Source: Acidobacteriota bacterium
Lineage (GTDB): Bacteria; Acidobacteriota; Thermoanaerobaculia; Multivoradales; UBA5704
Length of the DNA: 64,000 bases
Reading direction: 5' to 3'
NCBI GenBank assembly: GCA_040005235.1
Contig: JBDTZG010000004.1
Span: forward strand, 96,001-160,000
The notes below the pieces were generated by a model. The model had not been told where the DNA came from. It did no database searches and saw only the letters and a program-made list of their open reading frames with translations. Position numbers and translations under genes: made by a program. Positions 4,331-24,360 of this stretch are shown one piece after another (positions within the stretch are counted from its first letter, which is position 1; every line of letters begins with the position of its first letter).

Positions 4331-4392
4331 GGGCTCACGCGGTTCAAAAGACTCAATCGAAATGACCCTTCCGAGATAAGCTCCGCGGCGCG

Positions 4393-5613: not shown

Positions 5614-5622
5614 GAGGAGCTT

Positions 5623-5730: not shown

Positions 5731-5742
5731 GCTCCGCCCCTA

Positions 5743-6648: not shown

Positions 6649-6655
6649 CGGGGAT

Positions 6656-7633: not shown

Positions 7634-7689
7634 GGCGAGCTCTTTTCAGTGGGAATGTCGGTAGGAATTTCGGTGGTCGATAGGGAAAG

Positions 7690-8589: not shown

Positions 8590-9563
8590 CGCGCGGTCAC
8601 GCCTTCTTTCGAGTCGAAATTGAGGGTTTCGACCACGACGCTCCGGGGGCGTTGGCGGACCTCGACGTAGATCCGACCGACGTATTCGCCGAGCACGCCC
8701 ATCGCCATGAACAGAAGCCCCATCAGAAAGAAGAGGATCGCAAACAACGTGAACAGCCCCTCGGCCTCGGGCCCGCGGATCAACCGGCGAATCCCGAGGA
8801 ACAGGCCGAACCCTGAAGAGAAGAAGGCGATCAGCAGGCCGGTCCAGGTCGCGAAACGGAGCGGCAGCGAAGAGAAACCGGTGATCAAATCCGCCTGAAG
8901 CTTGAACAGCTTCCACAGCGAATATTTGGAATCGCCGACCGTCCGCTCGGCGTGGCCCACCGGCACCTCGGCGATCCGCCGGGCGAACTGGCAGGCGAGC
9001 GCGGGCACGAATGACGACCGTTCCGGGCAGCGGCCCATCGCGTCGACCACCGGCCGCGAATAGGCGCGCAGCATGCAGCCGTAATCGCGGAAATCGACCC
9101 CCGGCATCACCCGCCGCATCATCCGATTGATCTGGCGCGAGGCGAAGCGGCGGAAGAAAGAATCCTTCCGCTCCACCCGGTAGCCGCCGACCACGTCGAA
9201 ACCTTCCTCGGCTTTGGCGAGCAGCTTCGGAATGTCCTCGGGGGGATTCTGCAAATCGGCGTCGAGGGTCACGACGACGTCGCCACGCGACGCTTCGAGA
9301 CCGCTAAGCACCGCGGCGTGCTGGCCGTAATTGCGGTTGAACGAGATGACCTTGATCCGGCGATCGGCGGCGGCGATCTCGCGCAAGATTGGGAGCGACC
9401 GGTCGGAGCTGCCATCGTCGACCAGGATCGCCTCGACGCCCGACTTGCCCGGAGGTTTTCGGGATTCGCTCTCAATGCTGTCGAGCACCGGCCGGAGCCG
9501 CTCGTAGAGCGACGGCAAGTTCCCCTCCTCGTTCCAAACCGGAATGACGACCGAAAGGCGCAT
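8586..9563 (-). CDS. arnC: Undecaprenyl-phosphate L-Ara4FN transferase (GT2)
   Basis: VVIPVWNEE, VDDGSSD, RNYGQHAA, DADLQNPP and DYGCMLRAY motifs; two C-terminal TM helices. Confidence 0.9.
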   Translation of the reverse strand: MRLSVVIPVWNEEGNLPSLYERLRPVLDSIESESRKPPGKSGVEAILVDDGSSDRSLPILREIAAADRRIKVISFNRNYGQHAAVLSGLEASRGDVVVTLDADLQNPPEDIPKLLAKAEEGFDVVGGYRVERKDSFFRRFASRQINRMMRRVMPGVDFRDYGCMLRAYSRPVVDAMGRCPERSSFVPALACQFARRIAEVPVGHAERTVGDSKYSLWKLFKLQADLITGFSSLPLRFATWTGLLIAFFSSGFGLFLGIRRLIRGPEAEGLFTLFAILFFLMGLLFMAMGVLGEYVGRIYVEVRQRPRSVVVETLNFDSKEGVTAR

Positions 9564-9605
9564 CGAAGATTCTGCCTGCAAGAACCGGCCCCGTTCCTTG
9601 GGGCT

Positions 9606-10802
9606 TTAGGCTCCCGCCTGCTCCACCGCGTCGCGCACCGCGGCGACGACGTCCTCGGCATCTTCGTCGGTCATCGTCGGGAACAGCGGCAGCGAGACGA
9701 TCCGCGAGCAGACCTCTTCGGCGACGGGGAAGCGCCCCTCGGAAAAGTGGTACCGCTCGCGATAGTAGGCGTGGAGATGAACCGCCTCGAAATGGAGCCC
9801 GGTGCCGATTCCAAGATCCTTCAACCGGGCCATGAACGGCGCCCGCTCCGGAGCCAAGACCGTGAACAGGTGCCAGGGGTGGACGTGAGCGTACGGGGCG
9901 GTCCCCGGCAGTCCGAGCCCGGGCAGGTCGGAAAGGCCGCGCCGGTAGATCGCGGCGATCTCCGCCCGGCGGGCGTTGAACCGAGCGAGCTTCCGCAGCT
10001 GGTGCAGGCCGACGGCGGCGTGGAGATCGGTCAGGTTGTACTTGAAGCCCGGAAGCACCACGTCGTAAGTGGCGGGCGCCTTTTCGGTCGCTGAGTACGC
10101 CTTCCAGGCGTCGCGCCGCACGCCATGAAAGCGCCAGAGTTTGATTCGGTCCGCCAATTCGGCGTCATCGGTCGTGATCATGCCTCCTTCGGCCGAGGTC
10201 ATGTTCTTGATCGGATGGAAAGAGAAACAGGCGGCCGTGGTGCCCAGCTTCGTGGTCGCCCCGATCGGCGTTCCCTTGTACTCAGACCCCGCGGCATGGG
10301 CGGCATCCTCGATGATCGCCACATCCTCCCGCCCGGCTTCTTTAAGGACCGCCCGGATCGCGTCCAGGTCCGCCGGCTGGCCGGCGAAATGGACGGGTAC
10401 CACCGCCTTGGTGCGCGGGGTAAGGGCGGCGGCGAACGACGCCGGATCGAGGTTCCAGGTCGAGCGATCGACGTCCGCGAAAATCGGAGTGGCACCGCAA
10501 GCGATCACCATGTTCGAGGTCGCGGGCCAGGTGAGCGCGGGAACCACCACCTCGTCTCCGGGCCCGTACCCAAGAGCCAGGAAAATGACGTGCAGCGCCC
10601 CCGTGCAGGACGAGAACGCGAGCGCATGCTCGGCGCCCGACATGGCGGCGAATTCCTTCTCCAACGTTGCGGTGATCGGCCCGGTCGTAATCCACCCCGA
10701 ACGCAGGCAGCGGACGACCTCGTCGATCTCTTCCTCGCCGATGTCGGGGCGCGAAAAAGGCAGGGGCGGGTTCTTCGGCAGCACCGGCGGAGCGTAGTTC
10801 AT
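9606..10802 (-). CDS. arnB: UDP-4-amino-4-deoxy-L-arabinose aminotransferase (DegT/DnrJ/EryC1/StrS)
   Basis: LPFSRPDIG, SGWITTGP, EDAAHA, FSFHPIKNMTSAEGG and PGFKYNLTD motifs; first gene of the arn operon. Confidence 0.9.
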   Translation of the reverse strand: MNYAPPVLPKNPPLPFSRPDIGEEEIDEVVRCLRSGWITTGPITATLEKEFAAMSGAEHALAFSSCTGALHVIFLALGYGPGDEVVVPALTWPATSNMVIACGATPIFADVDRSTWNLDPASFAAALTPRTKAVVPVHFAGQPADLDAIRAVLKEAGREDVAIIEDAAHAAGSEYKGTPIGATTKLGTTAACFSFHPIKNMTSAEGGMITTDDAELADRIKLWRFHGVRRDAWKAYSATEKAPATYDVVLPGFKYNLTDLHAAVGLHQLRKLARFNARRAEIAAIYRRGLSDLPGLGLPGTAPYAHVHPWHLFTVLAPERAPFMARLKDLGIGTGLHFEAVHLHAYYRERYHFSEGRFPVAEEVCSRIVSLPLFPTMTDEDAEDVVAAVRDAVEQAGA

Positions 10803-10868
10803 TCCCGGCCGACCCGCAAACTCCGGAAGGCCCCGGAAGGAACCTGCGATGCGATAGTTTTCGGCCCT

Positions 10869-12554
10869 ATGAGCGAACCCCTCAATGCCCCTTCGAGCCG
10901 GAAATCCTGGCTCTCCGATGTCCTTCTCCTGGTTCTCGTCTTCGCCGCCCTGCTCGGCCCCTCGATCGGCCGCCGCGCGCTCTGGGAGCCGGACGAGGGG
11001 CGCTACGCCGAGATCCCACGCGAAATGGTCGCGACCGGCGACTACCTGACCCCCAGGATCGACGGAATCAAATACTTCGAAAAGCCGCCCCTCGTCTATT
11101 GGGCCACGGCCGCCGCGATCCGAATCGCCGGCACCTCCGAAGCGGCGGTTCGTTCACCCATCGCCCTCTTCGCCCTGCTCGGAGGGATCGCCGTCTACAT
11201 CGCAGGCCGCCGCCTCTTCGGCCGAGCCGCGGGACTCTGGTCGGCGCTCGTCCTAGCCACCTCGCCCCTCTGGCTCGGCCTAGGCCAAGTCCTCTCGCTC
11301 GACATGCCGGTCTCGGCCCTCCTCACCGCCTCGCTCCTAGCCTTCCTCCTGGCCGTCCGCGAGCCCCCGGGCTGGAACCGCCGCCTGCTCCTCTGGGCCT
11401 TCTACGCCTTCGCTGCGCTCGCGGTCCTCTCCAAAGGACTGATCGGCGTCCTGATCCCCGCCCTGGTGATCGGAGCCTGGATCCTCCTCACCCGCCAATG
11501 GCGCCTGATCCCCGTGGCCCTCGCCCCCACCGGAATCCTCCTCTTCCTCGCCATCGCGGCCCCCTGGCACCTTCTCGCCGCGCAAGCCCACCCGGAGTTC
11601 GCCTGGTTCTACTTCGTCCACGAGCACTTCCAGCGCTACCTGACCCAAGTCCACAACCGCTACGAGCCCCCCTGGTACTTCGTCCCCGTCCTCCTGGGGG
11701 GCCTGCTGCCGTGGACCCTCTTCCTTCCGCAGGCCCTCAAATCCGCCTGGCGCTCGGAACCCACAGAGCGCAGACAAACCCTCTTCCTAGCCTTGTGGGC
11801 CGCGCTCGTCTTCGGCTTCTTTTCGCTTTCCGACTCGAAGTTGATGCCCTACGTCCTCCCCGCCGTGCCGCCGCTGGCACTCCTCGTCGGAAGGTGGATT
11901 GCGGGCGTCGAGTGGGCGACTCAGCAACCCGGTCGCTCCCCGCTCCGCGCGGCGCTTTGGGTTCTCCTGCCCTTGGGGCTGATCCTCGCCTTGGCAGTAG
12001 CCTTCTGGCCCACGCCGACCGAAGGCACCAAAGACCGCGCCTTCCTCGATCTGCTCGGGGCTTACCGCCCCGCCCTGGCGATCTGCTTCGCCTTCATTGC
12101 CCTCGCGCCCTTCATCCTTGACCGCCTCGGCCAACGACGGGCTGGCATCGCCGCGCTGGTCCTAGGCAACGCCTTCCTCTTCACTACCCTGGGCGCGCTG
12201 GCCCCCCGCTTCGACGCCTACCGCTCGACGAAGCCCCTCGTCGAGGCTCTTTTGCCCCAGCTCCAACCCGGAGACGAAGTGGCGAGCTACCACTTCTACC
12301 CTCACACCCTCGCTTACTACTTGGGGCGCCGGATCACCATCGTTGGCTACACGGGGGAATTGGAATTCGGGGCTCGCCACGACGACACGACAGGCTGGGT
12401 GATTGGCGATTCGGAGTTCTGGCGGAGATGGAATGGGGCGGGGAGGGTGTTTGTGGTGGTGGACATGCAGCATAAAAAGCCCCTGCCGGTTGAGCTGGAG
12501 GGGGCGAGGGTGGTGGGGGAGGGGGGGATGTTTCGGGTAGTGATGAATCGGTGA
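10869..12554 (+). CDS. arnT: Lipid A 4-amino-4-deoxy-L-arabinose transferase (ArnT/GT83-like)
   Basis: LWEPDEGRYAEIPREM, YFEKPPL, LSKGLIG, FFSLSDSKLMPYVLP and GELEFG motifs; divergent from arnB. Confidence 0.88.
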   Translation: MSEPLNAPSSRKSWLSDVLLLVLVFAALLGPSIGRRALWEPDEGRYAEIPREMVATGDYLTPRIDGIKYFEKPPLVYWATAAAIRIAGTSEAAVRSPIALFALLGGIAVYIAGRRLFGRAAGLWSALVLATSPLWLGLGQVLSLDMPVSALLTASLLAFLLAVREPPGWNRRLLLWAFYAFAALAVLSKGLIGVLIPALVIGAWILLTRQWRLIPVALAPTGILLFLAIAAPWHLLAAQAHPEFAWFYFVHEHFQRYLTQVHNRYEPPWYFVPVLLGGLLPWTLFLPQALKSAWRSEPTERRQTLFLALWAALVFGFFSLSDSKLMPYVLPAVPPLALLVGRWIAGVEWATQQPGRSPLRAALWVLLPLGLILALAVAFWPTPTEGTKDRAFLDLLGAYRPALAICFAFIALAPFILDRLGQRRAGIAALVLGNAFLFTTLGALAPRFDAYRSTKPLVEALLPQLQPGDEVASYHFYPHTLAYYLGRRITIVGYTGELEFGARHDDTTGWVIGDSEFWRRWNGAGRVFVVVDMQHKKPLPVELEGARVVGEGGMFRVVMNR

Positions 12555-12601
12555 GAGGGGAAACCTCTGATTTCGCCGAGTTGTCCTACCAGGCCGGCGC
12601 G

Positions 12602-14800
12602 TCAAGAACTCGGACGCTTGGGCAGGCCGAGTTTTTCAACCCACCGCCGGTCGAGGTGGTAAAGCTCTTTTGGCTCGCCGTTGTCGTTCTCGTAGGCCTT
12701 CTTATAGCCTTCGAGAAGCCGAACGTGATCGGCCGAGTTGAAAAGATCTTCGGCCACGAGCCAAAGCCGATCCCCTGAGTATCTCTCGACGAGGCAGCGC
12801 GCCCCCAGTTCGTCCGCTGCACTTTCTAAAGCATTCTTCAAGCCAAGGAAGCCCGTCGGCCATGGAAAGTCCTGTGGAACGAGGGCTAGGAGGAAGGCAC
12901 GGCGCCGCGGCCTTGGCTCAGGATCTCCGAATACGGACTCCCGAAGGCCTCGCACAACTTGCAGCAGGTATTCCTCCCAACGCACGACCCGAGAGGTCGC
13001 TTTCGGGATCTCATAGCCGGGAACCGTTTCAGGGTCTTTTTCGCTGGAACCCGGCGCCTGGGAAGAACCAGATCCGGCTTCTTCCGACGAAACCCGGACT
13101 GAAGAGACTCCGCGCTCTTGGTCACGGAGCGCGCGCGCATAGTTTTCAAGAGCACTGTGGAGCCCGTCCCTGAACTCGGAGCGATCAACGACATTGTTAA
13201 AGGCATTGCAGCGCTCTTCGAGCGGCAGTGGCCGACGGCTCCCCAGAGATATCGCCCGCCAGAAACGCGCCCAGAGACTCGGCTGGCGTGCGGTGGCCCT
13301 ACGAAGCGCCTCCCAATGCGCGAGAAGCTGCAACATGGCCGCGGAATTGGACTCGGGTGGCGCTGGCGAATTTCCTAAAGGCAGATCCGCTTCGATCGGG
13401 AGTTTCAGGAAATCTTCGCTGGCCTTTCGGATTCTTTCCTTCGCCCCGATAGCGCGGAACGCCTCATGGGTTGCCAGAGCCTCTGGATCCACCGACCACT
13501 TCTGAGTACTGCCGGTCCCTGAGATTACGATTATGTCTTCCAGGCCGCTAAGTTCGCGCACATCTCCCTCGGTGGCAAACCGAATCTCGCGGAAACGGGC
13601 GCCAAGCCCCCTAAGCCTTTTCTGAATCTCACCTTGTATTGCGGAACCTAACTCATCGGTCTCACGCCGGACGGCCAAGCGCCAGCGGACCTCATGCGTC
13701 GGGTCGGCCACCGTTTCAGCCGGAGCTCGGGCATCGGTAGGGTCCTCTTTGTTCGTCTGTGGAGCGGAACCTGTATCGGTTCGAGAGGTTCCTTGCGGCA
13801 TCCCCTGTGCCAATGAAGCTTCGGTTTCTTGCAGCTCCAAGGCCGAAAAGTCTTCTCGAAAGAGCCACCGGGCCGCTGCAGCCCCGAAAGCCTCGGGAGC
13901 GAGCACTCGCCGCGTTTCCTCATCCGCGAGTCGCGCCATGCCCTGAACTGCGCAGATCGTTGCGCGCTGAACTTGGGTATCGAGCTGCGCGACGATGGCC
14001 CGAGCTGTGCGTCGAACGATGTCGCCCAACGCATCGCAGCGTTCCACTTCACCAAACAGAAAGCTGCGCGCGAACAACTCTCGGCGCGAGACCGCCGCTC
14101 TGATCGAGGGGATGCGTTCAAATTGAGCCTCGAATTCGATATTTCCCGCCCGCAGAGCCGTGATCTCTTGGAGTGCGGCATAGGTGTTGGCCTCAAGCCG
14201 ATTCGAGAAGTCGTGGTCCGAAAAGGCACCTGGAAGCGCAAAATAGCCAAGAATAAATGCCGTCCCGTCAAGACGTCGCGTAAGGTGCGCCACGTCGAGG
14301 AGCATCCCAGAGCCCGATCCTCCGCCCAGCGAGGTCACCAGCGCCACCCGCATACTGGTTTCCGGATCGGGTGCGGGGCTGGCGCAGCGAGCGCGAAATA
14401 TGCCCCTCTTGATAGACCTCTCGACACTCTCATCGGCGGCAAACAGTCCAAGGCGGCCGAGTGGACGGTAGCGCCGCGCTCCGGAAGGCTCTAGAGCATC
14501 AATGAGCTGGAACGATTTTCCCTCGGGAAACCAGGGAAGCAAATCGCGCCATCCCGAACGCCCCTCTTCATTCAGGCCGAGCTGCTCGAGAATCTCTGTG
14601 GCCTTTCGTGACGGTAAGTGTAGCCACTCCTCTGCGCCGAGCACGTTCCCTGGATCGCCGAGGGGCTTAGACTGATCGATCACCAGAAACGCCGTGGGCA
14701 CGCGCGAAAAGGATGCCATTTTCTCGAGAGACTTCTTTACTTCCACCGCAACCGAAGCGCCAAAGCCGCCGAGACCGAGTACTAGAGTCGGAGTTGTCAT
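12602..14800 (-). CDS. FtsZ/tubulin-like GTPase (Tubulin_2/FtsZl1-type), paralogue B, 732 aa
   Basis: TLVLGLGGFG, GARRYRPLGRLGLF, SLGGGSGSGMLLD (tubulin signature-like), GYFALP and ANTYAALQEI motifs. Confidence 0.85.
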   Translation of the reverse strand: MTTPTLVLGLGGFGASVAVEVKKSLEKMASFSRVPTAFLVIDQSKPLGDPGNVLGAEEWLHLPSRKATEILEQLGLNEEGRSGWRDLLPWFPEGKSFQLIDALEPSGARRYRPLGRLGLFAADESVERSIKRGIFRARCASPAPDPETSMRVALVTSLGGGSGSGMLLDVAHLTRRLDGTAFILGYFALPGAFSDHDFSNRLEANTYAALQEITALRAGNIEFEAQFERIPSIRAAVSRRELFARSFLFGEVERCDALGDIVRRTARAIVAQLDTQVQRATICAVQGMARLADEETRRVLAPEAFGAAAARWLFREDFSALELQETEASLAQGMPQGTSRTDTGSAPQTNKEDPTDARAPAETVADPTHEVRWRLAVRRETDELGSAIQGEIQKRLRGLGARFREIRFATEGDVRELSGLEDIIVISGTGSTQKWSVDPEALATHEAFRAIGAKERIRKASEDFLKLPIEADLPLGNSPAPPESNSAAMLQLLAHWEALRRATARQPSLWARFWRAISLGSRRPLPLEERCNAFNNVVDRSEFRDGLHSALENYARALRDQERGVSSVRVSSEEAGSGSSQAPGSSEKDPETVPGYEIPKATSRVVRWEEYLLQVVRGLRESVFGDPEPRPRRRAFLLALVPQDFPWPTGFLGLKNALESAADELGARCLVERYSGDRLWLVAEDLFNSADHVRLLEGYKKAYENDNGEPKELYHLDRRWVEKLGLPKRPSS

Positions 14801-14864
14801 GATTCATTCCTTTCCGAAAGTTCCTTGCTGCGGCCTCTCCCACAACTCCCAAGGTGGCCGCCCG

Positions 14865-14880
14865 AGCAATTCAGTGTCCG
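14865..14880 (-). promoter_or_regulatory. Possible internal sigma-54 (-24/-12) promoter for tubulin-like paralogue B
   Basis: Minus strand CGGACACTGAATTGCT is GG-N10-GC with a perfect TTGCT, about 65 bp upstream of ATG 14800. The -24 flank is imperfect. Confidence 0.4.
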
Positions 14881-14937
14881 GGTACAGACGTCTTGCGTCC
14901 TTGAAGGCAGGCAAAAACGAGGCTCAGCTACAATTCC

Positions 14938-15852
14938 TTACTGCCTCTCTGGGCCATGCTGACGTTGAAAGCTCTCGATGAGGTGCCGAGTTCGTCCTTC
15001 GAGAATCTTGCGAACGACTGGATCATGAGTACCTCCGACGAGCACTCCAGTTACTCGTGAGAGGAGCTCATGGTTGTAGCTGGCCAGACGAAAAATCGAA
15101 GCTTCAACCGAAGACTGATCGAGCACCTCTTGAATCAAGGCGTGGCCGACCACGACGAGTACGCGATAGTCGTCGGACTCGAGCCATTCGTCGGATGCTC
15201 CGTCGTACTGGGGCACGACAATCTCATCCGAATCCTTCACGCGGTGATCGCGGCGACCACAAAGGAGGCATGGTTCGGCGGGGGCCGATTGAAAACCAGC
15301 CGGAAGTTCTGGCGGAATTATGGAATCCTTCACCCGTTGCTTCTTTAAACTCTCGGAGCTGAAGCAAGCATGACAGAATAGGCACTTCTCCAATCGGGCA
15401 AGAAACGACCTTACTGCGAGCGGCTTAAGCGTCGCGTGTTCACAGATCGGACAGCGGCTTGCGCCGCGCGGCAGAAGGGCGAATTCTCCAGTAGGGAGGA
15501 GGAGCCCGCCCACGGGGCAGCCAAAAATGTTGGTGCAGAAGGAGTCGTCGAGCTCGCTGTGCTTTCGAATCCCAAAAGGCGACCTGCGCACTCCGCAGAC
15601 CGTACAGATCTTGATCTCGGTCTCGGGATCCGGGTCGTGGAGCGGCGATCGGACATGGCGAATAGCATTACAGCACGGGCAGTTTTCAAGCTCGCGACGG
15701 CAACGCGGGCAGCGCGACTGGTCAGCTAGGATCGGATAGCCACAGTGGCCGCAAGCCGTCTCGTAGCGGATCTCCTGATCTGCCTTTGCCGAGGCGCAAA
15801 GGAAGACGTTGCCGCCCGCGCGCCGAAAGAGGTAGCTCAGTGCGTGGGGCAT
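14938..15852 (-). CDS. Multi-zinc-ribbon (double-zinc-ribbon-like) protein
   Basis: Eight Cys pairs (CGHC, CPRC, CPCC, CTVC, CTNIFGC, CPIC, CLFC, CLLC). RBS GGAGAGGAG precedes ATG 15852, which overlaps the end of the upstream gene. Confidence 0.8.
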   Translation of the reverse strand: MPHALSYLFRRAGGNVFLCASAKADQEIRYETACGHCGYPILADQSRCPRCRRELENCPCCNAIRHVRSPLHDPDPETEIKICTVCGVRRSPFGIRKHSELDDSFCTNIFGCPVGGLLLPTGEFALLPRGASRCPICEHATLKPLAVRSFLARLEKCLFCHACFSSESLKKQRVKDSIIPPELPAGFQSAPAEPCLLCGRRDHRVKDSDEIVVPQYDGASDEWLESDDYRVLVVVGHALIQEVLDQSSVEASIFRLASYNHELLSRVTGVLVGGTHDPVVRKILEGRTRHLIESFQRQHGPERQ

Positions 15853-18800
15853 TTGAGCTCCTCTCCGGTGCAACAGTTTCGTCCCGTCGCGTGGTCGACC
15901 GGAATCAGCAACGTTCTACAGTTTGGGCAACGTACATTGTCAGGGAGTCCGTGATGGGCCGCTAACATTTTAAACTTTTCGGAGTCGTGCCCATTGACGC
16001 CGTCGAGATAGAAGCAGATGAGGTCCGCGGGCACTCGGAAGGTCTCATGGCTGCGATCTTTTTCATGGAGGTCTTCACAATTTGGACAGAACAATGCCTC
16101 GCGCACGTCCGGTCGCTTCCCGATCCGTGATTTTGGGAAGGCAATCGGGTCGCGCCGATGCTCTTCGATGCAGCGGGGGCAAAGCTCTTTGTCGATCGAG
16201 ATCTCTTCGGGAATCTCGCCGTGCCGACAGCAGGTCCACCACTCGGCATGGTTAAAGCCCTGGCAGAACGGGCAGCTTTTGTCCTGGCGCCGCGGATCCT
16301 TATGGAGTTCACTGGCTGTGCAATCAGGATTTCCGCATCGCGAACGGATGGGCCGGTGACAACCCGGGCAGTTCCGAGTATCCCTTGGTACATTGGCAAT
16401 GCCGTAGGAACAAGCGTCGTTGCCGCAGGTCACCGCGGCGGCTGAAACCGTGGTGCGAATATCTAGAAACTCCCGCAGCTTCAAGAAGCGACGATCAATG
16501 TGGTAAAGCTCAACGAATTCGGAGGCCTGATACGACTGATAGTAGTCCTCAATGTTGCGTATGTGGTCTGGAGGGTTGAAGAGATCCTCGGTATAGATCC
16601 AGATCCGCGAGCCGTGGTACCACTGGACCTGCACCTGACTATCAAGAATCTGGGCAGCGCTTGCCTTAATAAACTTAAGGAGATGATCCGCATCTTTCCC
16701 TGGCCATACCAGTCCTTTTGGCACCATGATGAATGCGAATCCCACGCGGAGGACATTCGGTGTCCGCCTCTCAAAGACGCTCTGTCGGCACCGTACGAGT
16801 GCTTCGCGCAGGCGAGCTTGGGCATCTTTTTCATTCAGTTCAAGGATCATGTGATCGCCACTTAGGCCTTGGTCCTGGCCGATTCGTTCTTGGACCAAAT
16901 CGAAAAGGCGTTGCCTCAGGACCTCTGGATCCTTCTCCGACGCGAATGTTCGGGCGCCCTCAAGAAGGGAGGGAAGCTTAGTGCGGAGGACTTCGAGTGC
17001 AATCGAGAGGAGAGGTTCAGTTAACTGGTAGAGCTTTGCGATCGGCGCAAGCTCGGCCTCGGGCACCCTTTCCCAGACTTCCTTTCCAGGAAGAGACTGT
17101 TCCGTTTCCTCAAGAGCTCTCCTGAGGGTCTCGCGAAGTTCCTTTATTGCCCGGACACGCAGAGTGGAATCCAAGCAACCCTGGACCGACGTATCGGCTA
17201 GGCCTGCTTGAACCTCGGGCAATGCTCGCCGAGATGCAATCATCTGATTGACCTTTGGCGACTTAGAGGGACGCCACCATCGCCTCTTCTGGTGACTGCT
17301 CAAGCGCGCTAACGCGTTTTCCCATCGCTTGCGGATTTCGGTAAGTGCCTCGGTGGTCTGCGGGAAGGGATAAAAGAAAAGCCGTGGATCATCAAGAAGT
17401 CCCTTCAGAAATCCCCGACGGGCAAGGGCACTCTCTCCCAATGAGGTGAGTGCGGCGCGGACGTGTGTGCGAACCTCGTCTCTGATTCCAGCGTCAAATT
17501 GATCGAAGGCGGACGGTAGTACTTGTCTCTTCTCCCCTGGCTCTAAGGTAGGAATGGGCGCAGTGAGAACTCGGAACAAATCCAACTTGCGGCTATAGAT
17601 CTTATCATCGGCGCTGAATTCAGAAAACGCCAGCTCGCCGAACTGTTTGAGTCGCTCGATCGACGCATTGACTTCGTCGGAATGTCCGCCGCGTAGTCGC
17701 TGGTCTATCCAAGCGAGCTGTTGCTCCAGGCCCTTGAAAATCTGCTCCTTCGCCTCATTTGCGTGGCGTTCTATGCGGCCTCGCCACTGCCGAATGAGTC
17801 TTCGGTGACTAGTATCATCAGACTGAGTGTCACCACTAGGTTTGAGATCCTCTTCACCCTCTCTTGGATCGACCGAGGTGATGGAGCCTGCTCGCATCAC
17901 CTCCATCATCGAGCGATTGGTTGCTTCGATCTTCGGCGCGAAGATTTGGGCCAGGAAGGAGGGTTGTTTTAGTGCTCGAAGTGCACTGTCGAAGAGTACC
18001 TCGTCGAGGTTCTCGATGGGTACGAGCGGTACGAACTGGCTACCAGAGGTACTAAAGCAGTGGGATCTCTTGCGACCTTGCTCCGTTAGCGCATCTCCCG
18101 AAACGACGTTTGCTGCGACCGAAAGCGTCTTGAGCTGAATGTCTCTCTGCAGTTGGCCCAGGATCGACTCGGCTATTCGCACGTTGGCGGCGAGAATCGG
18201 ATCGGTGCCGCAGAAGCCCTGGCTCGGACAAAGGAAAATGCGAGAAAAGGGTGCCTCACCGTGGACTGGAATGTCGAGGGGTGGAAGGTGGAAGTACCGC
18301 GCCTGAATCGGAATCTGCTGGTCCTTCAGATAACACAGCTCGCGGATACAGGCATATGCGTTCTGAAGGATTCGGCCGCCGTTGTCGACGTCCTGAAAGA
18401 CCTCGGGTAACATCAGGTAGCCGAAGACACGTGGCCGCCCCATCTGGCGCCTTGCGAGGTAGGCCATGTCGACGAGCATTCCGGCGCCCGTCCCTCCCGC
18501 AATCGAACCGACCAAGATGACTCGCTTGTCTTCAGAGAGCCGAACCGAGTCAACTTCACCGCCGATTTCGTGAAGCTTCGCTCGCACGGTTCTGCCGAGG
18601 GACTCGTCATTAAGGAAGAAACCGAGACGGCCGAGGACACGAAGCTGACTCGCTCCGTTGGCTTCGACTTCGCTGACCGGGATCGTGACGCGCTCAGGGA
18701 ACCAGTCAAGCACGTTTGCCCATGCGGGCTGATCGCCATGGACGCGATCGAGGTGGCGAAGCGCATCCTGGATCGTGCGGGGGTTAAGGAAAAGAAACTC

Positions 18801-18986
18801 ATCGTCGCCGAAATCCTCTAGTTCTCCGTTGCCTGCTGACTCCAAGGCAGAGCGGTCAAAATCAATGGCTAGAAAACTCGCTGGAACCCGCTCTCTCGCG
18901 GGGAGGCGAAGGTAGAGCCTCTTGAGGGCACGTAGTGTGAGTACTCCTGTACCGCCAAGGCCGATAACCAGAGTCGCAATCGACAT
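15837..18986 (-). CDS. FtsZ/tubulin-like GTPase (Tubulin_2/FtsZl1-type), paralogue A, with helical middle region and C-terminal zinc ribbons, 1049 aa
   Basis: TLVIGLGGTG, FLAIDFD, GASQLRVLGRLGFF, SIAGGTGAGMLVD, GYLMLP and NAYACIREL motifs; Cys-rich tail. Start overlaps the vWA stop (TAATG). Confidence 0.88.
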   Translation of the reverse strand: MSIATLVIGLGGTGVLTLRALKRLYLRLPARERVPASFLAIDFDRSALESAGNGELEDFGDDEFLFLNPRTIQDALRHLDRVHGDQPAWANVLDWFPERVTIPVSEVEANGASQLRVLGRLGFFLNDESLGRTVRAKLHEIGGEVDSVRLSEDKRVILVGSIAGGTGAGMLVDMAYLARRQMGRPRVFGYLMLPEVFQDVDNGGRILQNAYACIRELCYLKDQQIPIQARYFHLPPLDIPVHGEAPFSRIFLCPSQGFCGTDPILAANVRIAESILGQLQRDIQLKTLSVAANVVSGDALTEQGRKRSHCFSTSGSQFVPLVPIENLDEVLFDSALRALKQPSFLAQIFAPKIEATNRSMMEVMRAGSITSVDPREGEEDLKPSGDTQSDDTSHRRLIRQWRGRIERHANEAKEQIFKGLEQQLAWIDQRLRGGHSDEVNASIERLKQFGELAFSEFSADDKIYSRKLDLFRVLTAPIPTLEPGEKRQVLPSAFDQFDAGIRDEVRTHVRAALTSLGESALARRGFLKGLLDDPRLFFYPFPQTTEALTEIRKRWENALARLSSHQKRRWWRPSKSPKVNQMIASRRALPEVQAGLADTSVQGCLDSTLRVRAIKELRETLRRALEETEQSLPGKEVWERVPEAELAPIAKLYQLTEPLLSIALEVLRTKLPSLLEGARTFASEKDPEVLRQRLFDLVQERIGQDQGLSGDHMILELNEKDAQARLREALVRCRQSVFERRTPNVLRVGFAFIMVPKGLVWPGKDADHLLKFIKASAAQILDSQVQVQWYHGSRIWIYTEDLFNPPDHIRNIEDYYQSYQASEFVELYHIDRRFLKLREFLDIRTTVSAAAVTCGNDACSYGIANVPRDTRNCPGCHRPIRSRCGNPDCTASELHKDPRRQDKSCPFCQGFNHAEWWTCCRHGEIPEEISIDKELCPRCIEEHRRDPIAFPKSRIGKRPDVREALFCPNCEDLHEKDRSHETFRVPADLICFYLDGVNGHDSEKFKMLAAHHGLPDNVRCPNCRTLLIPVDHATGRNCCTGEELKCPTH

Positions 18987-20905
18987 TAGTGCGAACTTTC
19001 CGAGCATGTAAAGGTTTGGATCGGTGTCGCGCCGTCGACAGCTGGAGGAGAAAGTGACCAGGCTAAGAATACTGCTACCAGAAAGACGGAACCGAACCAA
19101 TACCGAGGTTTCACTCGATCACGTTCAATTTGCTCAATATCCTTATCCGTTGGCGGTTGCGGGGCCTGGGCAATTTTCATTTCTCGGCCCGAGTAGTACC
19201 AGCGAACCAGGAAGTAGGTAAGTATAGAAAGTGCGAGAGCGACGAGCACAGATCGGCCGATCGGTCGCGAGAGCCAAGAAAAAACGGACTCGGTCGAGAG
19301 TAAGTTGAGTCGCGAAGCAGTGCTGCCTATATTAGCGAGACCGCCAGCAAAAATTGTCAGCAGATGATTCCATTCTATCGCGGCAAAGAACTTGCGTTTC
19401 GTGAGTCCGATAACGATACTAATAAGTGTAACAACAACACCAACCACTCCTTGAATACTGTTCGTGTGGCTGCTCCCAACATCCTCTTCCGGTTTAGTGA
19501 GCGACGCCTCCGATTTTTCGACATGAACTTCAAATTGGTTCTCAGAAAGTTCGCTTTCAAACCGCATCGGAACCGCAATCGCGATGGCATAGTTCTTAAA
19601 GTCTTTGATGTCTAGATCTTCCGGTACGTTAAAACAGCGTTTAACTTTCCCCTCATCGCTTTCGCTTCCGATTCGCTGGAGAGTTACCTGATAGGTTTCG
19701 TCTTTTGTGGAATCTCCTCGCATCGAAGCGAAGACGCGGAGAAGACCATCGTGACGAAGAAAGTTTCGTTCAAAAACCGACCTCTCGACACTTGCCTCGA
19801 CCCAGCCAACCACTTTGTCTGCTGTCCCATCAACGCCTTCTCGGGATATGGCGTGAATTCTATAGCTCGCAGTTGTGGCAGGGCAGGCGTCTGAGGGAAA
19901 GAGAAGCTCATCTGCCGTCGACCTTTGCATGGCGAGAGCGTTCGCAAATTTAGAACCAATTAGAGGTAGGTCTTTGGGGTCACCGATGGCTATCCCGTTT
20001 GCGTCGATGCAAGCGAGTTCGATGCGTGAGAGGCGAACCTCTGCGGCATTCGGATTTTGAATTTCGAGGTGAATAGTTCTTTGCCGAACGCTAGGCAACG
20101 CTACTACGGAGAGTGGGAAATAGAGGCGACGTTTGATTTCTTGGGCAAGGTCGCGGGCATTAATGCCACCTGACCCGATTTCTCGCCGCTCCAAGCCCCG
20201 AACCTTCTCGAGGTCGTCGAGCACCTGGGTACGAAGACGGTTCTCAGCCTCGTCCGTTGCTGTCAGTGGGGCGACGCCGAGGAGGAGAGGATTTCGGGTG
20301 TCATTGCCACTCGCCGTGCGATCTTCAAGCCATGGTTTGAGGGTGATGTCCAGAACTTGCTGCCAGTCGGTCATCGCGCGTTGCCAGTAGGCAGGGTCGT
20401 TGGTTGATTTCTTACGGCCAATACGGGATGGCTCATGCACGAAGTCGCTGGCGATGATGGCCACCTCTCGCATGAACTTTCGATCGCGAGAGGAGAGCTG
20501 CGCCCGAAGGCTCTCGGCAACAGCTTGAAAATCGGTTCGCTGGAGCGCGGGATTCCGGAGGGGGTCGTTCTGAATGGCCAAGATCCTCTCTCTCAGAGTT
20601 TCGATGAGCGGGCGATCGAGTGAACCACCCGGCAGAGGATCTTCGTCAAGGATTCGGTCGGCGAAAAGAAAGAAGCGGACTTCGTCGTTCGCAGTCAGAA
20701 ATTCGGGCTCGCGAAGAAGGAGTTGGAGGGCCTCGACGGTTTTTACAAAGGGAGAGTCGTCCTTGTCAGGGTGCATGCTCCCCGAAAGGTCGAGGTACAC
20801 GAGAACCCTCTTCGAGAATGCCTCCTGCGATTCAGCGCTGGCGGCGCCAAAGGCGGGGCAGAAGAAGACATACAGGAGTAGAAATGGGTAAGTAGTTCGT
20901 CTCAT
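18986..20905 (-). CDS. Membrane-anchored extracytoplasmic von Willebrand factor A (vWA) domain protein
   Basis: N-terminal signal peptide; MIDAS DLSGS...TDF...SDF; beta-rich middle region; 3-4 C-terminal hydrophobic helices; RBS GGAG. Confidence 0.8.
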   Translation of the reverse strand: MRRTTYPFLLLYVFFCPAFGAASAESQEAFSKRVLVYLDLSGSMHPDKDDSPFVKTVEALQLLLREPEFLTANDEVRFFLFADRILDEDPLPGGSLDRPLIETLRERILAIQNDPLRNPALQRTDFQAVAESLRAQLSSRDRKFMREVAIIASDFVHEPSRIGRKKSTNDPAYWQRAMTDWQQVLDITLKPWLEDRTASGNDTRNPLLLGVAPLTATDEAENRLRTQVLDDLEKVRGLERREIGSGGINARDLAQEIKRRLYFPLSVVALPSVRQRTIHLEIQNPNAAEVRLSRIELACIDANGIAIGDPKDLPLIGSKFANALAMQRSTADELLFPSDACPATTASYRIHAISREGVDGTADKVVGWVEASVERSVFERNFLRHDGLLRVFASMRGDSTKDETYQVTLQRIGSESDEGKVKRCFNVPEDLDIKDFKNYAIAIAVPMRFESELSENQFEVHVEKSEASLTKPEEDVGSSHTNSIQGVVGVVVTLISIVIGLTKRKFFAAIEWNHLLTIFAGGLANIGSTASRLNLLSTESVFSWLSRPIGRSVLVALALSILTYFLVRWYYSGREMKIAQAPQPPTDKDIEQIERDRVKPRYWFGSVFLVAVFLAWSLSPPAVDGATPIQTFTCSESSH

Positions 20906-20938
20906 GGCTGCTCCAAAGGGTTTTAGTGAAATTAGGTA

Positions 20939-20954
20939 AGCAGGGTGCGTGCCG
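20939..20954 (-). promoter_or_regulatory. Sigma-54 (-24/-12) promoter of the vWA-tubulin operon
   Basis: Minus strand CGGCACGCACCCTGCT versus consensus TGGCACG-N4-TTGCW, with exact GG-N10-GC spacing, 34 bp upstream of the vWA ATG. Confidence 0.75.
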
Positions 20955-21052
20955 CAGAGGAAAATGCGCGCTGAAAGTGAGCTAAGTCGAACAGTTTTAG
21001 AGGCTTACGCCGGAGTGGACTAGCAGGACGGCCCACCAATTCGAGGCGTTCA

Positions 21053-21071
21053 GGAAACACCTACCGTTTCC
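21053..21071. promoter_or_regulatory. Inverted repeat GGAAAC-N7-GTTTCC: candidate enhancer (UAS) or terminator hairpin of the activator gene
   Basis: About 100-120 bp upstream of the -24 element and 30 bp downstream of the activator stop. Confidence 0.35.
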
Positions 21072-21099
21072 CTGGGGTAACGCTTCTCCCCCTCCCCCT

Positions 21100-22170
21100 C
21101 TAGGGTCTCTCGATCCCGTATTGGTGAAGCTTCGCGTAGAGCGACTTCGGACTGATCTCCAGGATGCGGGACGCGCGGCGTAAGTTAAAGCTGGTGAGTC
21201 GGCATACCTCGAGGATGTAGCGACGCTCGGCGAACTCTCGGACCTTGCGAAGCGATTGGGGTTGATCGAACCACGGGAGATCGCTGGTTCGCCAGGAGGA
21301 AGGGCAAACCGCTTCCACATCCTGAGGTGTGATGACTTGGCGTTCTCCAACCTCGGCGATAAGCCGGACGACGAGCTTGTCCAGTCCCCGCACGTTGTCG
21401 GGAAAGTTCCGCGCTTGAATTGCGGGCCAGCAGTCTTCGTCGAAATGGAGCTTGAGGTCGGCGCGCATCCCTTTGCGCCCAAGGTCGAGGAGGTTTCTCT
21501 GCAGGAGCTGTTCGCAAAGGAGGGGAATATCCTCTTTCCTCGCACGTAGCGGGGGAATTGAGAGCTCGAAGTAGTCGAGCCGGCTGACAAAGTCGCTCTT
21601 AAGTCGCCCGGCCTCGACTTCGGCGGGAACGTCCTTGTTCGTGGTCGCGACGAACCGCACATCGACGGCGTGAGACTTCTCAGACCCAAGGGAATAGAAG
21701 GTTCCGTCTACCAGGACGCGATGAAGACGGTCCTGCTGTGGTGGGCTCAGGCGCTCGAAGTCGTCGAGCACGAGGACGCCGCCGTGCGCCTGGTCGAGAC
21801 GCCCGCTGAGATCCCGCACTGCCCCAGTGAACGAACCGGCGCGATGCCCAAAGAGAGCGTTGTCGAGCTCGGGTAGGGAGCCGCAGTCGACAACTACGAA
21901 AGGTCCTCCCTTACGGGGGGATTGAAGATGAATATGGCGAGCAAGGTGACTCTTTCCGGAGCCAACCTCGCCTGTAATGAGAATGGGCCGATCCCCGCCG
22001 ATCGCCGCTCGACGGGCTTGGTCGAAGAGATTGGCGATCGCTTCGGACTGTCCGACGAAAGCGATGGAAGAACTCGCAACGCCTGATGTGGATCCCTCGG
22101 ACCATAAGGATCTCTGAGCCCTTGCACTTCGAGGGGCCGACTCCACAGGAAAAGTCCTCCGTTCAAGCAT
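21100..22170 (-). CDS. Sigma-54-dependent enhancer-binding protein (AAA+ plus Fis-type HTH) lacking an N-terminal sensor domain
   Basis: ILITGEVGSGKS (Walker A), PFVVVDC, LFGHRAGSFTGA, DVRFVATTNKD, IPPLRARKEDIP and C-terminal NLRRASRILEISPKSLYAKL. Confidence 0.92.
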   Translation of the reverse strand: MLERRTFPVESAPRSARAQRSLWSEGSTSGVASSSIAFVGQSEAIANLFDQARRAAIGGDRPILITGEVGSGKSHLARHIHLQSPRKGGPFVVVDCGSLPELDNALFGHRAGSFTGAVRDLSGRLDQAHGGVLVLDDFERLSPPQQDRLHRVLVDGTFYSLGSEKSHAVDVRFVATTNKDVPAEVEAGRLKSDFVSRLDYFELSIPPLRARKEDIPLLCEQLLQRNLLDLGRKGMRADLKLHFDEDCWPAIQARNFPDNVRGLDKLVVRLIAEVGERQVITPQDVEAVCPSSWRTSDLPWFDQPQSLRKVREFAERRYILEVCRLTSFNLRRASRILEISPKSLYAKLHQYGIERP

Positions 22171-22188
22171 AGAAAAAATGTAATGTAT

Positions 22189-22207
22189 CGATGAATTAAA
22201 TTCATCG
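22189..22207. promoter_or_regulatory. Perfect 19-bp palindrome CGATGAATT-A-AATTCATCG, candidate operator
   Basis: 9-bp perfect arms in an AT-rich tract 18 bp upstream of the activator start codon. Confidence 0.6.
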
Positions 22208-22782
22208 TTATTCTATCAGAGTAAAGCGAGTTGACTGACATGCCGACCAGAGAGCGCTCGGTACGCAGATCTACCTTCTCGATTAGAAGACGCGAGGTTT
22301 GGAGTGTCTTCAGTCCAACAGGGACAGACAAACCCCGCCGCGAAAGCGACGAGACAATCTTAAAGCTCCCCCCTTACGCCGTTCGTCCCCAGCCACCCCA
22401 CCGCCGTGACCTCTCTCGCCGACCCTTCGCCGCCAGCCGCCGCGCGAACCGCCCGGCGAACACCTTCGCCATCGCTCCTGAGCTAAAGGTTTTTGCTAGG
22501 GGAACCGCCCGGGGGGAGAGGGTGCGGCACTCTTCGGGGGGCGGAGACGCAGACGGTCGGGATGGCTCTGGCGTAGGTAATCCAGTCGATGGCGGCGGTG
22601 GAGGGTTCGGGGGATTCCAGGCCGACGATGATTTCGCCGCTGGTGACCTGGGGAGAACGCCCCCCCGCTCCACAGTCGATCCGGAGGTTTTTCAACTCCC
22701 AGATCCACGGTCTTGTCCCCCCTGGGCCTCTTGCCTCACCTTGATTGTTTAGGGTTCCCTCCTTGAACCTAGAGGAGTCGCT

Positions 22783-24360
22783 ATGGCGAAGGCGATCGTG
22801 ATTGTGGGAGGGGGTACGGCGGGCTGGATGGCCGCGTCGTATCTCAAGAAGGCGTTGCCCAAGGTCGACGTGACGGTGATCGAGTCGGCCAACGTCGGAA
22901 CGATCGGGGTCGGCGAAGCCACGTTTTCTACCGTCAAGCTGTTTTTCGATTTTCTTGGGTTAGACGAGAGCGAGTGGATGCCAAGCTGCAACGCCACCTA
23001 CAAGATGGCGATCCGGTTCGTCGGCTGGCGCGCCGACGGGGGGCACTTCTACCACCCATTCCAGCGCTACGAAGTGGTCGACGGCTTCAACCTCGGCGAC
23101 TGGTGGATGCGGTTGAAGCGCCATGAAGAGCCGTTCGACTATGCCTGCTTTCCGACCCCGGCCCTGTGCGACGCCCAGCGCTCGCCCCGCTTCCTGGACG
23201 GCCGCGTTTACGACGATCATGTCCAGGATTACTTCCTTGGGGAAGTCGGCGGCCACAACAACATCATCATGGACCACAAGGTCCAGTACCCTTACGCCTA
23301 CCATTTCGATGCCGGCCTGCTCGCGGTCTTCTTAAAGGACTTTGCGATGGCCCGCGGCGTCCACCGGATCGTCGACGACGTCGCCGGGGTGGTGCGCGAC
23401 GACCGGGGGTGGATCGACCATCTGGTGACCCAAGAGCACGGCGATCTGTCGGCCGATCTGTTCGTCGACTGCACGGGGTTCCGCGGCCTGCTGATCAACC
23501 AGGCGCTCGGCGAGGAGTTCCTATCGTTCTCGGAATCGCTGCTCTGCGATCGGGCGATCGCTTTACAGGTTCCGCGGGACGTGCGGGCTCACGGGATCAA
23601 CCCGTTCACCTCGGCGACGGCGATGTCGGCCGGCTGGTCGTGGAACATTCCGCTCTATGGCCGGGTGGGCACCGGGTATGTCTATTCGAGCGCCTTCCTC
23701 TCGCCCGACGAGGCGGAAAAGGAATTCCGCGCCTATCTGGGGCCGGCGTCCGAGGGCTTGAAGGCCAACCACATCAAGATGCGGATCGGGCGCAACCGCA
23801 ATTCCTGGGTCGGCAACTGCGTCGCGATCGGCCTGGCCAGCGGCTTCGTCGAGCCGCTCGAATCGACCGGGATCTTCTTCATCCAGAACGGTATCGAGGA
23901 ATTGGTCAACCACTTCCCGAGCCATGAAATCGACGATGCCACGGTACGCAGCTACAACCGGGTGATCGGCGACTGCATCGACGGGGTACGCGACTTCCTG
24001 ACCCTTCATTACTGTGCGAGCGATCGGGCGGACAACGATTTCTGGCGCGCGACCAAGATGGTCGTTCCTTCGAATTTCCTTGCCGAGCGGCTGGAGCTCT
24101 GGAAGCGGCGCCTGCCGAACGCACGCAGCATCCCGCAGAGCTTCCATGGCTTCGAGTCCTACTCCTACTCGGTGATGCTGCTCGGCTTGAACTACCGGCC
24201 CATGTCGAGCCTGCCGGCGCTCGACCAGGTGCCCTCGGGCAACGCGTTGCGCGCTTTTTCGGCGCTTCGCGAGCGGACGCGGAAGCTGGTCGCCGAGCTT
24301 CCTTCGCAGCTGGAGTACCTGACTTTCATTCGGGAGCAGGTCGGAGCGGCGGTGGCGTAA
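22783..24360 (+). CDS. Flavin-dependent tryptophan halogenase (PyrH/SttH-like)
   Basis: GGGTAGW, GVGEATFS, YKMAIRF (catalytic Lys), YAYHFDA, WSWNIPL (WxWxIP), FVEPLESTG and HGFESYS motifs; RBS AGAGGAG. Confidence 0.93.
   Translation: MAKAIVIVGGGTAGWMAASYLKKALPKVDVTVIESANVGTIGVGEATFSTVKLFFDFLGLDESEWMPSCNATYKMAIRFVGWRADGGHFYHPFQRYEVVDGFNLGDWWMRLKRHEEPFDYACFPTPALCDAQRSPRFLDGRVYDDHVQDYFLGEVGGHNNIIMDHKVQYPYAYHFDAGLLAVFLKDFAMARGVHRIVDDVAGVVRDDRGWIDHLVTQEHGDLSADLFVDCTGFRGLLINQALGEEFLSFSESLLCDRAIALQVPRDVRAHGINPFTSATAMSAGWSWNIPLYGRVGTGYVYSSAFLSPDEAEKEFRAYLGPASEGLKANHIKMRIGRNRNSWVGNCVAIGLASGFVEPLESTGIFFIQNGIEELVNHFPSHEIDDATVRSYNRVIGDCIDGVRDFLTLHYCASDRADNDFWRATKMVVPSNFLAERLELWKRRLPNARSIPQSFHGFESYSYSVMLLGLNYRPMSSLPALDQVPSGNALRAFSALRERTRKLVAELPSQLEYLTFIREQVGAAVA

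Follow-up and report, generated by a model that had tools for sequence, protein, structure and literature searches.

A co-inherited pair of FtsZl1 proteins with a predicted split tubulin fold in a putative sigma-54-controlled cassette of an Acidobacteriota bacterium

The stretch analysed here (the window) comprises 64,000 nucleotides from the genome of a soil bacterium of the Acidobacteriota (assembly GCA_040005235.1, contig JBDTZG010000004.1, positions 96,001 to 160,000) and carries a cassette formed by a run of five minus-strand genes, which encode, in this order, a sigma-54 activator, an exported vWA protein, a tubulin-like protein (A), a zinc-ribbon protein and a second tubulin-like protein (B). 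Taken as a whole, the cassette is probably best explained as an ancient, co-inherited pair of FtsZl1 proteins in which the tubulin fold is split, encoded within a sigma-54 cassette. The FtsZl1 family is known already, and the new part is most likely the split fold, with its second domain predicted to be present, in a co-inherited A/B pair.

Judged by their sequences, A and B are members of FtsZl1 (Pfam Tubulin_2, PF13809), and their cassette is a variant vWA-FtsZl1 operon. Gene A (15,837–18,986, minus strand) encodes 1049 amino acids (aa) in its deposited form (P0006), the open reading frame (ORF) itself spanning 15,837–19,100, and gene B (12,602–14,800, minus strand) encodes 732 aa. Against a gathering cut-off of 27 bits for PF13809, A scored 145.4 bits (E 3.4e-42) and B 107.2 bits (E 1.4e-30), and tubulin proper was excluded for both, with PF00091 scores of 22 (A) and 15.2 (B) bits versus a cut-off of 33. 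The T4 signature of the FtsZ/tubulin superfamily is [G/A]GG[T/S]G[S/A]G, and it matches the genome's own FtsZ. Both A (T1 GLGGTG, T4 AGGTGAG) and B (T1 GLGGFG, T4 GGGSGSG) carry T1 and T4 loops of the superfamily type. They are the only two Tubulin_2 genes of the genome, whose canonical FtsZ lies on another contig, and no transmembrane (TM) helices were found in either protein.

The shared block and the predicted split fold

Between A and B, BLASTP aligned an N-terminal part with 28% identity over 439 aa (E 2e-38) and a second block with 39% identity (41/105, E 5e-17), the latter joining residues 620–722 of B to 772–874 of A (ORF numbering), that is, nucleotides 12,637–12,943 and 16,481–16,787. 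The initial annotation of this DNA had proposed that the two proteins share a homologous, unnamed domain of about 105 aa and differ in their nucleotide loops. All the motifs, loops and positions that it quoted for the two genes are present where it placed them, and the alignment bears out the homology. At the sequence level the domain is indeed unnamed, none of 21 members of the block family having a Pfam match better than E 0.12 and a search of PDB sequences with the block giving E 0.44 at best. A 23-nt DNA repeat (12,645–12,667 and 16,489–16,511, 83% identity) is the trace of the common ELYHxDRR stretch. In addition, hhalign of the block against 22 distant first-copy FtsZl1 proteins returned a probability of 0.2%, a profile of full-length A found only insignificant coiled-coil noise among PDB sequences (E 0.047 or worse), and the ESM Atlas held no model and no usable match for the block of A.

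The fold of B was modelled with AlphaFold2 from A- and B-type proteins aligned in 36 rows, with a mean predicted local distance difference test score (pLDDT) of 78.4 and a predicted template modelling score (pTM) of 0.64. Following the GTPase domain, the model shows two helices (residues 275–291 and 294–303), a strand (304–314) and a helix (315–333), all of them before the insert, and, in the shared block, where pLDDT is mostly 84–96, a helix (598–617), a strand (634–642), a helix (650–664), two strands (668–674 and 678–689) and a last helix (696–705). In a Foldseek search with this model, CetZ, TubZ, FtsZ and tubulins ranked first, the best of them being CetZ 3zid_A (E 1.9e-5). Structural alignment with VIA-align gave Z 25.3 and a root-mean-square deviation (rmsd) of 3.5 for CetZ 3zid_B (303/342 aligned, model 2–710, chain 1–343), Z 21.2 and rmsd 4.0 for Bacillus subtilis FtsZ 2vxy (282/306, model 2–689, chain 11–316), and Z 21.1 and rmsd 3.5 for BtubB 2btq_B (320/391, model 3–727, chain 2–413). 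Across CetZ, FtsZ, TubZ, BtubB and tubulins, the aligned ranges ran from model residues 1–3 to 687–729, and the target chains were covered nearly completely. VIA-align reports the first and last aligned residues, and the match of the block to the C-terminal domain was deduced from the aligned counts: since the ranges end inside the block and nearly the whole of each target is covered, the block would stand in for the C-terminal domain that the targets have. The best matches over both domains were the CetZ, FtsZ and TubZ structures 3zid, 4b45, 4b46, 2vxy and 4xcq (Z 21–25), from which A and B differ by a sequence identity of 10–15%, by family-specific inserts between T1 and T4 and by the large insert in the second domain.

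The model of B has H7 and a second alpha/beta domain packed on the GTPase domain, as in the superfamily, and homology to B predicts a second tubulin-type domain in A too. From the order of the elements we infer that, in B, S7 corresponds to residues 304–314 and H9 to 315–333, followed by the insert, S8 (634–642), H10 (650–664) and S9 plus S10 (668–689). The shared block is very probably the second (C-terminal) domain of the tubulin/FtsZ fold and not an additional domain. By ungapped register, for which alone the weak hhalign match between the A family and FtsZ (probability 1.3%) was used, the stretch from H7 to S7 is as long in A and in B as in the genome's own FtsZ, in accord with this reading. 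In this register, relative to the T7 loop of the FtsZ (QGIS...NVDFAD), A shows N at about +9 and D at about +14 counted from the end of H7; in B, positions +15 to +17 read D-E-E.

In A, residues 1–330 (17,997–18,986; this and all the following segments on the minus strand) hold the GTPase domain with its Tubulin_2 match, H7, a T7-like loop and S7/H9, with H7–S7 collinearity set by register. Residues 331–715 (16,842–17,996) form a variable helical insert, residues 716–848 (16,443–16,841) the shared block, read as the C-terminal domain (S8–S10 plus helix), and residues 849–1049 (15,840–16,442) a tail whose 8 Cys pairs correspond to about four zinc ribbons. In B, the GTPase domain, H7, a short T7-like loop, S7 and H9 take up residues 1–333 (13,802–14,800), a helical module inserted between two disordered linkers residues 334–597 (13,010–13,801), and the shared block, again read as the tubulin/FtsZ C-terminal domain, residues 598–727 (12,620–13,009). 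In the model, pLDDT falls below 50 at 333–366 and 566–598, and the helices between them (367–570) are mostly at 72–94. Behind the GTPase domain, both proteins have the long helical or coiled-coil stretch that is typical of FtsZl1. Among 22 A-type proteins, the GTPase motifs and the tail cysteines are invariant and the insert is poorly conserved; the B copies of distant loci also bear a zinc-ribbon tail.

The insert was delimited with the help of P0058, a 748-aa relative made up of Tubulin_2, block and TIR, which is 55% identical to A over residues 1–332 and whose block starts about 15 residues after the GTPase part (345–468, corresponding to 716–843 of A). As P0058 runs from the GTPase part directly into the block and lacks the intervening region, residues 331–715 of A are an insert, which mapping places in the H9–S8 loop, with a length of about 385 aa in A and about 265 aa in B. 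The suggestion in the initial annotation of a displaced tubulin C-terminal-like domain behind a long helical insert is supported both by the alignments of the B model and by this insert-less, TIR-fused relative.

This reading departs from what has been described for the family. Makarova and Koonin (2010, PMC2875224) report that no counterpart of T6–H7 or of the FtsZ/tubulin C-terminal domain is detectable in FtsZl1, and describe an N-terminal FtsZ-like GTPase domain with a GGTG-type signature, a long helical/coiled-coil middle and a further C-terminal part, an architecture that A and B share; in contrast to that description, both domains of the fold are present in the B model, with an insert between their parts. 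Likewise, the survey of Santana-Molina et al. (2023) states that the FtsZ_C and Tubulin_C Pfam domains are absent, and it left FtsZl1/Tubulin_2 out of its main datasets as too divergent. The split fold, the asymmetry between A and B described below and the effector fusions of their relatives were not found in the literature searched, which largely excluded subscription journals. In that literature the FtsZl1 name occurred only in the 2010 paper, and, among the 25 of 400 matches listed, Tubulin_2 in the Pfam sense also occurred in the 2023 survey and in a paper on Borg elements.

Duplication, co-inheritance and asymmetry of the pair

The cassette recurs in seven species genomes (L020–L026), three of these loci being those of the relatives G002, G020 and G027, and on four metagenome contigs (L027–L030). 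Counting the window, both copies were present in nine of the ten loci with enough downstream DNA, L027 and L030 ending too early to judge the second copy. In a tree built from 29 GTPase-domain sequences, of which 11 were of A, 9 of B and 9 chosen as outgroups, the B copies formed one clade (support 95/95) and the A copies its sister group (94/93), within which three effector-fused proteins nested. Distances among A copies and among B copies were correlated (Mantel r 0.73, 2 of 2000 permutations as high), which, at the level of sequence distances, shows co-inheritance and not contact. An ancient duplication followed by co-inheritance of A and B is, on these sequence data, highly likely. In the one locus that lacks B (L022, 13,003–15,531), A and the zinc-ribbon gene are followed by a 354-aa ORF without Pfam match.

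The two copies have not evolved alike. Terminal branches in the tree ranged from 0.06 to 3.3 for B versus 0.12 to 0.58 for A, and the mean p-distance of the GTPase domain was 0.66 for B versus 0.38 for A, B being about twice as fast. The A copies kept GLGGTG and AGGTG[AS]G throughout. In the B-type sequences shown, the T1 threonine was absent from 12/12 (GLGGFG, GLGGIG, GLGGVG, GLGKVG or GLGTTA) and the T4 signature was mostly kept. Because its T7-like loop is still acidic by register, B appears altered rather than plainly dead. Co-inherited paralogs with unequal nucleotide sites, a trait of obligate heterodimers, were found here, and co-inheritance and asymmetry are consistent with a hetero-assembly of A and B, of which they are not a demonstration. 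The phylogeny that the initial annotation had called for places the A and B copies as sister groups, co-inherited in nearly all assessable loci; the duplication followed by subfunctionalisation that it proposed agrees with the single B clade, the faster divergence and the loss of the T1 threonine, although the duplication is ancient and not a recent event in situ.

A and B resemble alpha/beta-tubulin and BtubA/BtubB in being two adjacent or co-expressed paralogs with, as modelled, a full tubulin fold and with unequal nucleotide loops. Unlike those proteins, they are not tubulin proper, their fold is broken by an insert of 265–385 aa, and their heterodimer is only hypothesised. The main text of PMC2875224 does not contain the terms 'heterodimer' or 'two copies' or mention Acidobacteria; in it, 'paralog' refers to FtsZ paralogs in general and 'duplicat' to the ancient origin of the family, not to paired FtsZl1 genes.

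Pairs of this kind recur in the wider family. Among 74 metagenome loci with distant Tubulin_2 genes, 27 had two of these genes side by side, and many of the remaining contigs break off too soon to tell. On a quick tree of 69 rows, from which duplicate loci and one short row had been dropped, the upstream and downstream labels required 2 changes versus a mean of 23.3 after shuffling, with none of 500 shuffles as low. The T1 motif, including its threonine, and the T4 motif were kept in 35/35 upstream copies, and the downstream copies kept the T1 motif in 1/34, 19/34 of them being without the GGxGxG signature. A single origin of all the upstream copies was rejected by the approximately unbiased (AU) test (log-likelihood difference 131, p-AU 0.00024), a test devised after the tree, a quick one with long branches, had been seen. 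If this rejection holds, FtsZl1 pairs would have arisen at least twice.

Gene content, regulation and relatives of the cassette

The first gene of the cassette (21,100–22,170, minus strand) encodes a 356-aa sigma-54 activator with an AAA+ domain (Sigma54_activat, E 1.6e-44, residues 39–203), a GSFTGA loop and a Fis-type helix-turn-helix (HTH_8, residues 311–351), but without an N-terminal sensor domain. In this combination, lacking a regulatory domain and standing beside the operon that it presumably drives, it resembles PspF-type activators, although it is not a PspF equivalog (TIGR02974, 179.7 bits versus a cut-off of 443.55). A homologue lies upstream of the cassette in 7/7 genome loci and in a class-level relative (G079), and rpoN is present in the genome. 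A putative sigma-54-type promoter (GG-N10-GC; 20,939–20,954, minus strand) lies about 35 nt before the vWA ATG, and a site of the same pattern precedes the vWA ATG in six of seven related loci, four of them located by regular expression at 39–49 nt and two (L025 and L026) by eye, the variant of L020 having GA instead of GC. The pattern is not enriched across the whole window (16 matches versus 8.7 expected), and general scans for promoters and terminators yielded nothing beyond shuffled expectation.

The vWA gene (18,986–20,905, minus strand) encodes a 639-aa protein (P0004) that starts with a signal peptide and ends in three C-terminal TM helices; its DxSxS motif recurs in 11/11 homologues. 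The protein has no Pfam match of its own, but its residues 25–176 are 32% identical (E 1e-12) to the VWA_2-positive part of a protein from the G079 cassette; its Atlas matches, to be taken as leads only, also point to vWA (scores 0.76–0.83). With this motif and homologue, the operon has the protein with vWA and metal-ion-dependent adhesion site (MIDAS) that characterizes FtsZl1 operons, which in PMC2875224 likewise carries a signal peptide and TM segments. The vWA stop and the A start overlap as TAATG. The end of A is in turn overlapped by the zinc-ribbon gene (14,938–15,873, minus strand), which encodes 311 aa as an ORF, with 7 Cys pairs and a weak match to Pfam Zn_Ribbon_1 (E 0.036); a homologue follows A in 7/7 genome loci, and no significant similarity to the tail of A was detected (best E 0.055). 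Neither sigma-54 control nor zinc-ribbon parts feature in the contexts given in the Findings of PMC2875224.

The closest relatives (L020 and L021) have, like the window, one vWA gene, and the distant loci L023–L026 are arranged as vWA, A, zinc-ribbon, a second vWA-like gene and B; together with G079, they follow the order activator, vWA, tubulin, (zinc-ribbon), vWA, tubulin, that is, a duplicated unit. The G079 cassette (L105, G079:C47:36000-55900; 3869–18,598, minus strand) is headed by a caspase-like Peptidase_C14 gene, followed by the sigma-54 activator and by genes for a 655-aa vWA-like, a 1419-aa Tubulin_2, a 588-aa VWA_2 and a 1482-aa Tubulin_2 protein; the block is present in both tubulin-like proteins (E 1e-14 and 1e-10), and their T4 is intact. 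Extra proteins that share with A only its zinc-ribbon tail are encoded at L024:5127-7844, L023:20632-22704 and L026:5224-7056; the one of L024 also shares part of the block, and all three are without tubulin domain or Pfam match. Just downstream of two of the cassettes lie genes for a Ser/Thr kinase with tetratricopeptide repeats and an alpha-2-macroglobulin-like protein (L026:18985-21480 and L025:19072-23073).

When 1.84 billion representatives were searched with a profile of 21 blocks, 87 proteins matched at E up to 0.001. Tubulin_2 was present in 33 of the 36 that were scanned with Pfam, a sample chosen for odd lengths or positions and including most of the weak matches, from which one too long protein and 50 others were left out. 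The block-bearing Tubulin_2 proteins include forms of about 1300–1750 aa with the block in mid-chain. BLASTP and a local hidden Markov model did not find the block in the FtsZl1 proteins of about 1260–1330 aa of the relatives, nor in the 74 distant metagenome loci. The distribution of the cassette is patchy: among 401 genomes from the phylum, only 10 candidates being scored in each, 2 gave a match to the block profile, and 4 out of 41 relatives had the A/B pair.

Several relatives bearing the block (P0058, P0053, P0049, P0081, P0052, P0089 and P0110) are fused to TIR_2, SIR2_2 or PNP_UDP_1 domains. P0058 and P0052 lack a long insert, so that no more than about 50 residues part their block from the GTPase domain, and the two are close also in P0053. 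The effector parts of the fused relatives match PADLOC models for ThsB (E 1.6e-19), ThsA/LmuA/Dsr1 and the CBASS PN effector (E 1e-14). The TIR, SIR2 or PNP effector domains borne by A-clade relatives hint at a part in conflict or defence, and by this analogy we tentatively consider a defence role of the cassette, somewhat on the doubtful side. As to the cassette itself, the activator matched RtcR/PspF-type PADLOC models and P0003 had a chance-level match to Cas10c (E 0.076, 8.7 bits). A tblastn search of plasmids with the TIR-fused relative gave only four weak partial matches. A distant trio of vWA, tubulin-like and hypothetical genes is present in a cultured strain, on plasmid pMESIL01 of Allomeiothermus silvanus DSM 9946 (L136, NC_014213.1, 155,341–173,760), flanked by two IS701 copies and adjoining brxL, a helicase-related gene, a WYL-domain gene and a RecQ helicase; a GTPase profile did not detect its third gene as a tubulin paralog.

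A comparable arrangement is that of the GAP1-N2 conflict systems of Firmicutes (Kaur et al., 2020, PMC7159879), which comprise two coiled-coil-fused tubulin genes and two vWA genes, one vWA protein having TM helices and being extracellular, and are read as a regulated cytoskeleton-like assembly in biological conflict. The present cassette likewise has two tubulin-domain genes with helical extensions and a TM-anchored extracellular vWA protein. Unlike the GAP1-N2 systems in their Firmicutes versions, it is acidobacterial and includes a sigma-54 activator and a zinc-ribbon protein, and scans of its five genes and of six flanking ORFs detected no GAP1-type GTPase or fibronectin type III repeat protein, both defining parts of those systems, and no HSP70.

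The cassette and its near flanks (12,000–24,000 of the window) have a G+C content of 54–61%, versus 65–70% in the remaining window, which suggests arrival by transfer, yet the cassette is syntenic within the genus (G002). No tRNA was found in the window and no convincing repeats flank the cassette. The flanking genes encode an ArnT-like glycosyltransferase (10,125–12,554), a DegT aminotransferase, a GT2 glycosyltransferase and a tryptophan halogenase, the gene of the halogenase family (22,783–24,360, plus strand, E 8e-144) adjoining the cassette here and also standing beside the G002 copy. A Pro/His-rich ORF of 147 aa (12,162–12,605, minus strand) abuts the stop of B; it is probably spurious and not a gene, as it is antisense to the end of the ArnT-like gene.

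Alternative explanations and significance

In the working that we propose, each of the two proteins would be a complete tubulin-type module with an accessory arm, A having a zinc-ribbon tail in addition. A is the slowly evolving copy with canonical loops, and B the fast-evolving one, its T1 threonine lost. The dedicated, sensor-less activator would drive the sigma-54 promoter, from which the pair would be transcribed together with the vWA and zinc-ribbon genes, the vWA protein being translationally coupled to A. Under the membrane, A and B would contact each other and form a GTP-dependent, possibly polymeric hetero-assembly, with the vWA protein, facing outwards, perhaps serving as its sensor or anchor. 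Trigger and output may lie in a stress or conflict (defence-like) response, the likely setting. For a physical A:B assembly in itself, we would put the chances slightly below even.

Several observations weigh against parts of this proposal. The match of the block to the C-terminal domain found in the targets rests on aligned counts and not on listed residues, the way in which the block docks on the GTPase domain is a prediction as well (at the pTM given above), B is the only protein folded, A's fold being taken by homology across a block of 39% identity, and sequence does not link the block to FtsZ_C, since a comparison by hhalign with the FtsZ of relatives (28 proteins, picked by GGGTG[TS]G) gave a probability of 0.2%. 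The lack of sequence similarity of the block to FtsZ_C or Tubulin_C, the single model, with its pTM, and the disordered linkers around the insert would be expected if the block were an independent oligomerisation or partner-binding domain whose placement on the GTPase domain is an artefact of the model. We consider this very improbable, since near-full coverage of CetZ, FtsZ and tubulin requires an equivalent of their C-terminal domain and the aligned range ends inside the block, which is confidently modelled, accompanies Tubulin_2 in nearly all the proteins scanned and abuts the GTPase domain in the compact relatives. The retention of an intact T4 and of an acidic T7-like residue, by register, means that B is not clearly a dead partner, and L022 has A without B. 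That B is merely a decaying, functionless duplicate, as its long branches (0.3–3.3 versus 0.12–0.58 for A), the degenerate T1 loops GLGKVG and GLGTTA of distant loci and its absence from L022 might indicate, is hardly credible: B is an intact ORF in nine deeply diverged loci, across which the A copies diverge to about 40% identity, keeps the invariant F, P, D and R positions of the block and has its own ribosome-binding site. The second vWA-like gene before B in the distant loci fits equally well with two parallel modules, in which A and B would not bind each other but would each form homo-oligomers or homopolymers with a vWA protein of its own, the cassette of the window having lost the second one. 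The order found in L023–L026 and, in G079, a tandem duplication of a vWA plus tubulin unit with both T4 loops intact favour this possibility; it is unlikely in our view, given that a single vWA gene serves both copies in the window and in its closest relatives, and that the twofold faster evolution of B and the loss of its T1 threonine would be unexpected for equivalent modules.

As regards the function, the flanking genes are for a glycosyltransferase, an aminotransferase and a halogenase and not for defence, and PADLOC (PADLOC-DB 2.0) has no model that matches A, B, the vWA or the zinc-ribbon protein. Both facts, the envelope-sugar genes among these flanks included, would suit a housekeeping cytoskeletal system for membrane remodelling or vesicle formation without any role in conflict or defence, which is what PMC2875224 proposed for the FtsZl1-vWA operons. 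Such a role is rather unlikely, as it does not readily account for the patchy distribution of the cassette, its location in a low-G+C stretch and the TIR, SIR2 or PNP fusions of its relatives. Returning to the co-inherited pair with a split fold, it may be speculated, with some distance from our firmer claims, that FtsZl1 pairs embody in bacteria the principle of alpha/beta-tubulin, that is, an obligate hetero-assembly of a conserved GTPase and a partner that evolves fast and is partly degenerate, with at least two independent origins, acting under a vWA sensor after sigma-54 induction, and that the module of the single-gene relatives is a GTP-driven scaffold for TIR, SIR2 or PNP immune effectors; that all of this holds together is unlikely.

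The FtsZl1/Tubulin_2 proteins were described in 2010 (PMC2875224) as being without the half of the tubulin fold that is needed for polymerisation. If the second domain is present but split, as the model of B predicts, these proteins may after all make longitudinal contacts of the tubulin type, and the recurrence of pairs made of a conserved and a diverged copy turns hetero-assembly into a concrete hypothesis. The five-gene, sigma-54-driven cassette is compact enough to be transferred to a laboratory host, and the TIR, SIR2 and PNP fusions offer an assayable read-out of the action of the module. If the scaffold reading proved true, a tubulin-type polymer would be the platform of an immune signalling system.

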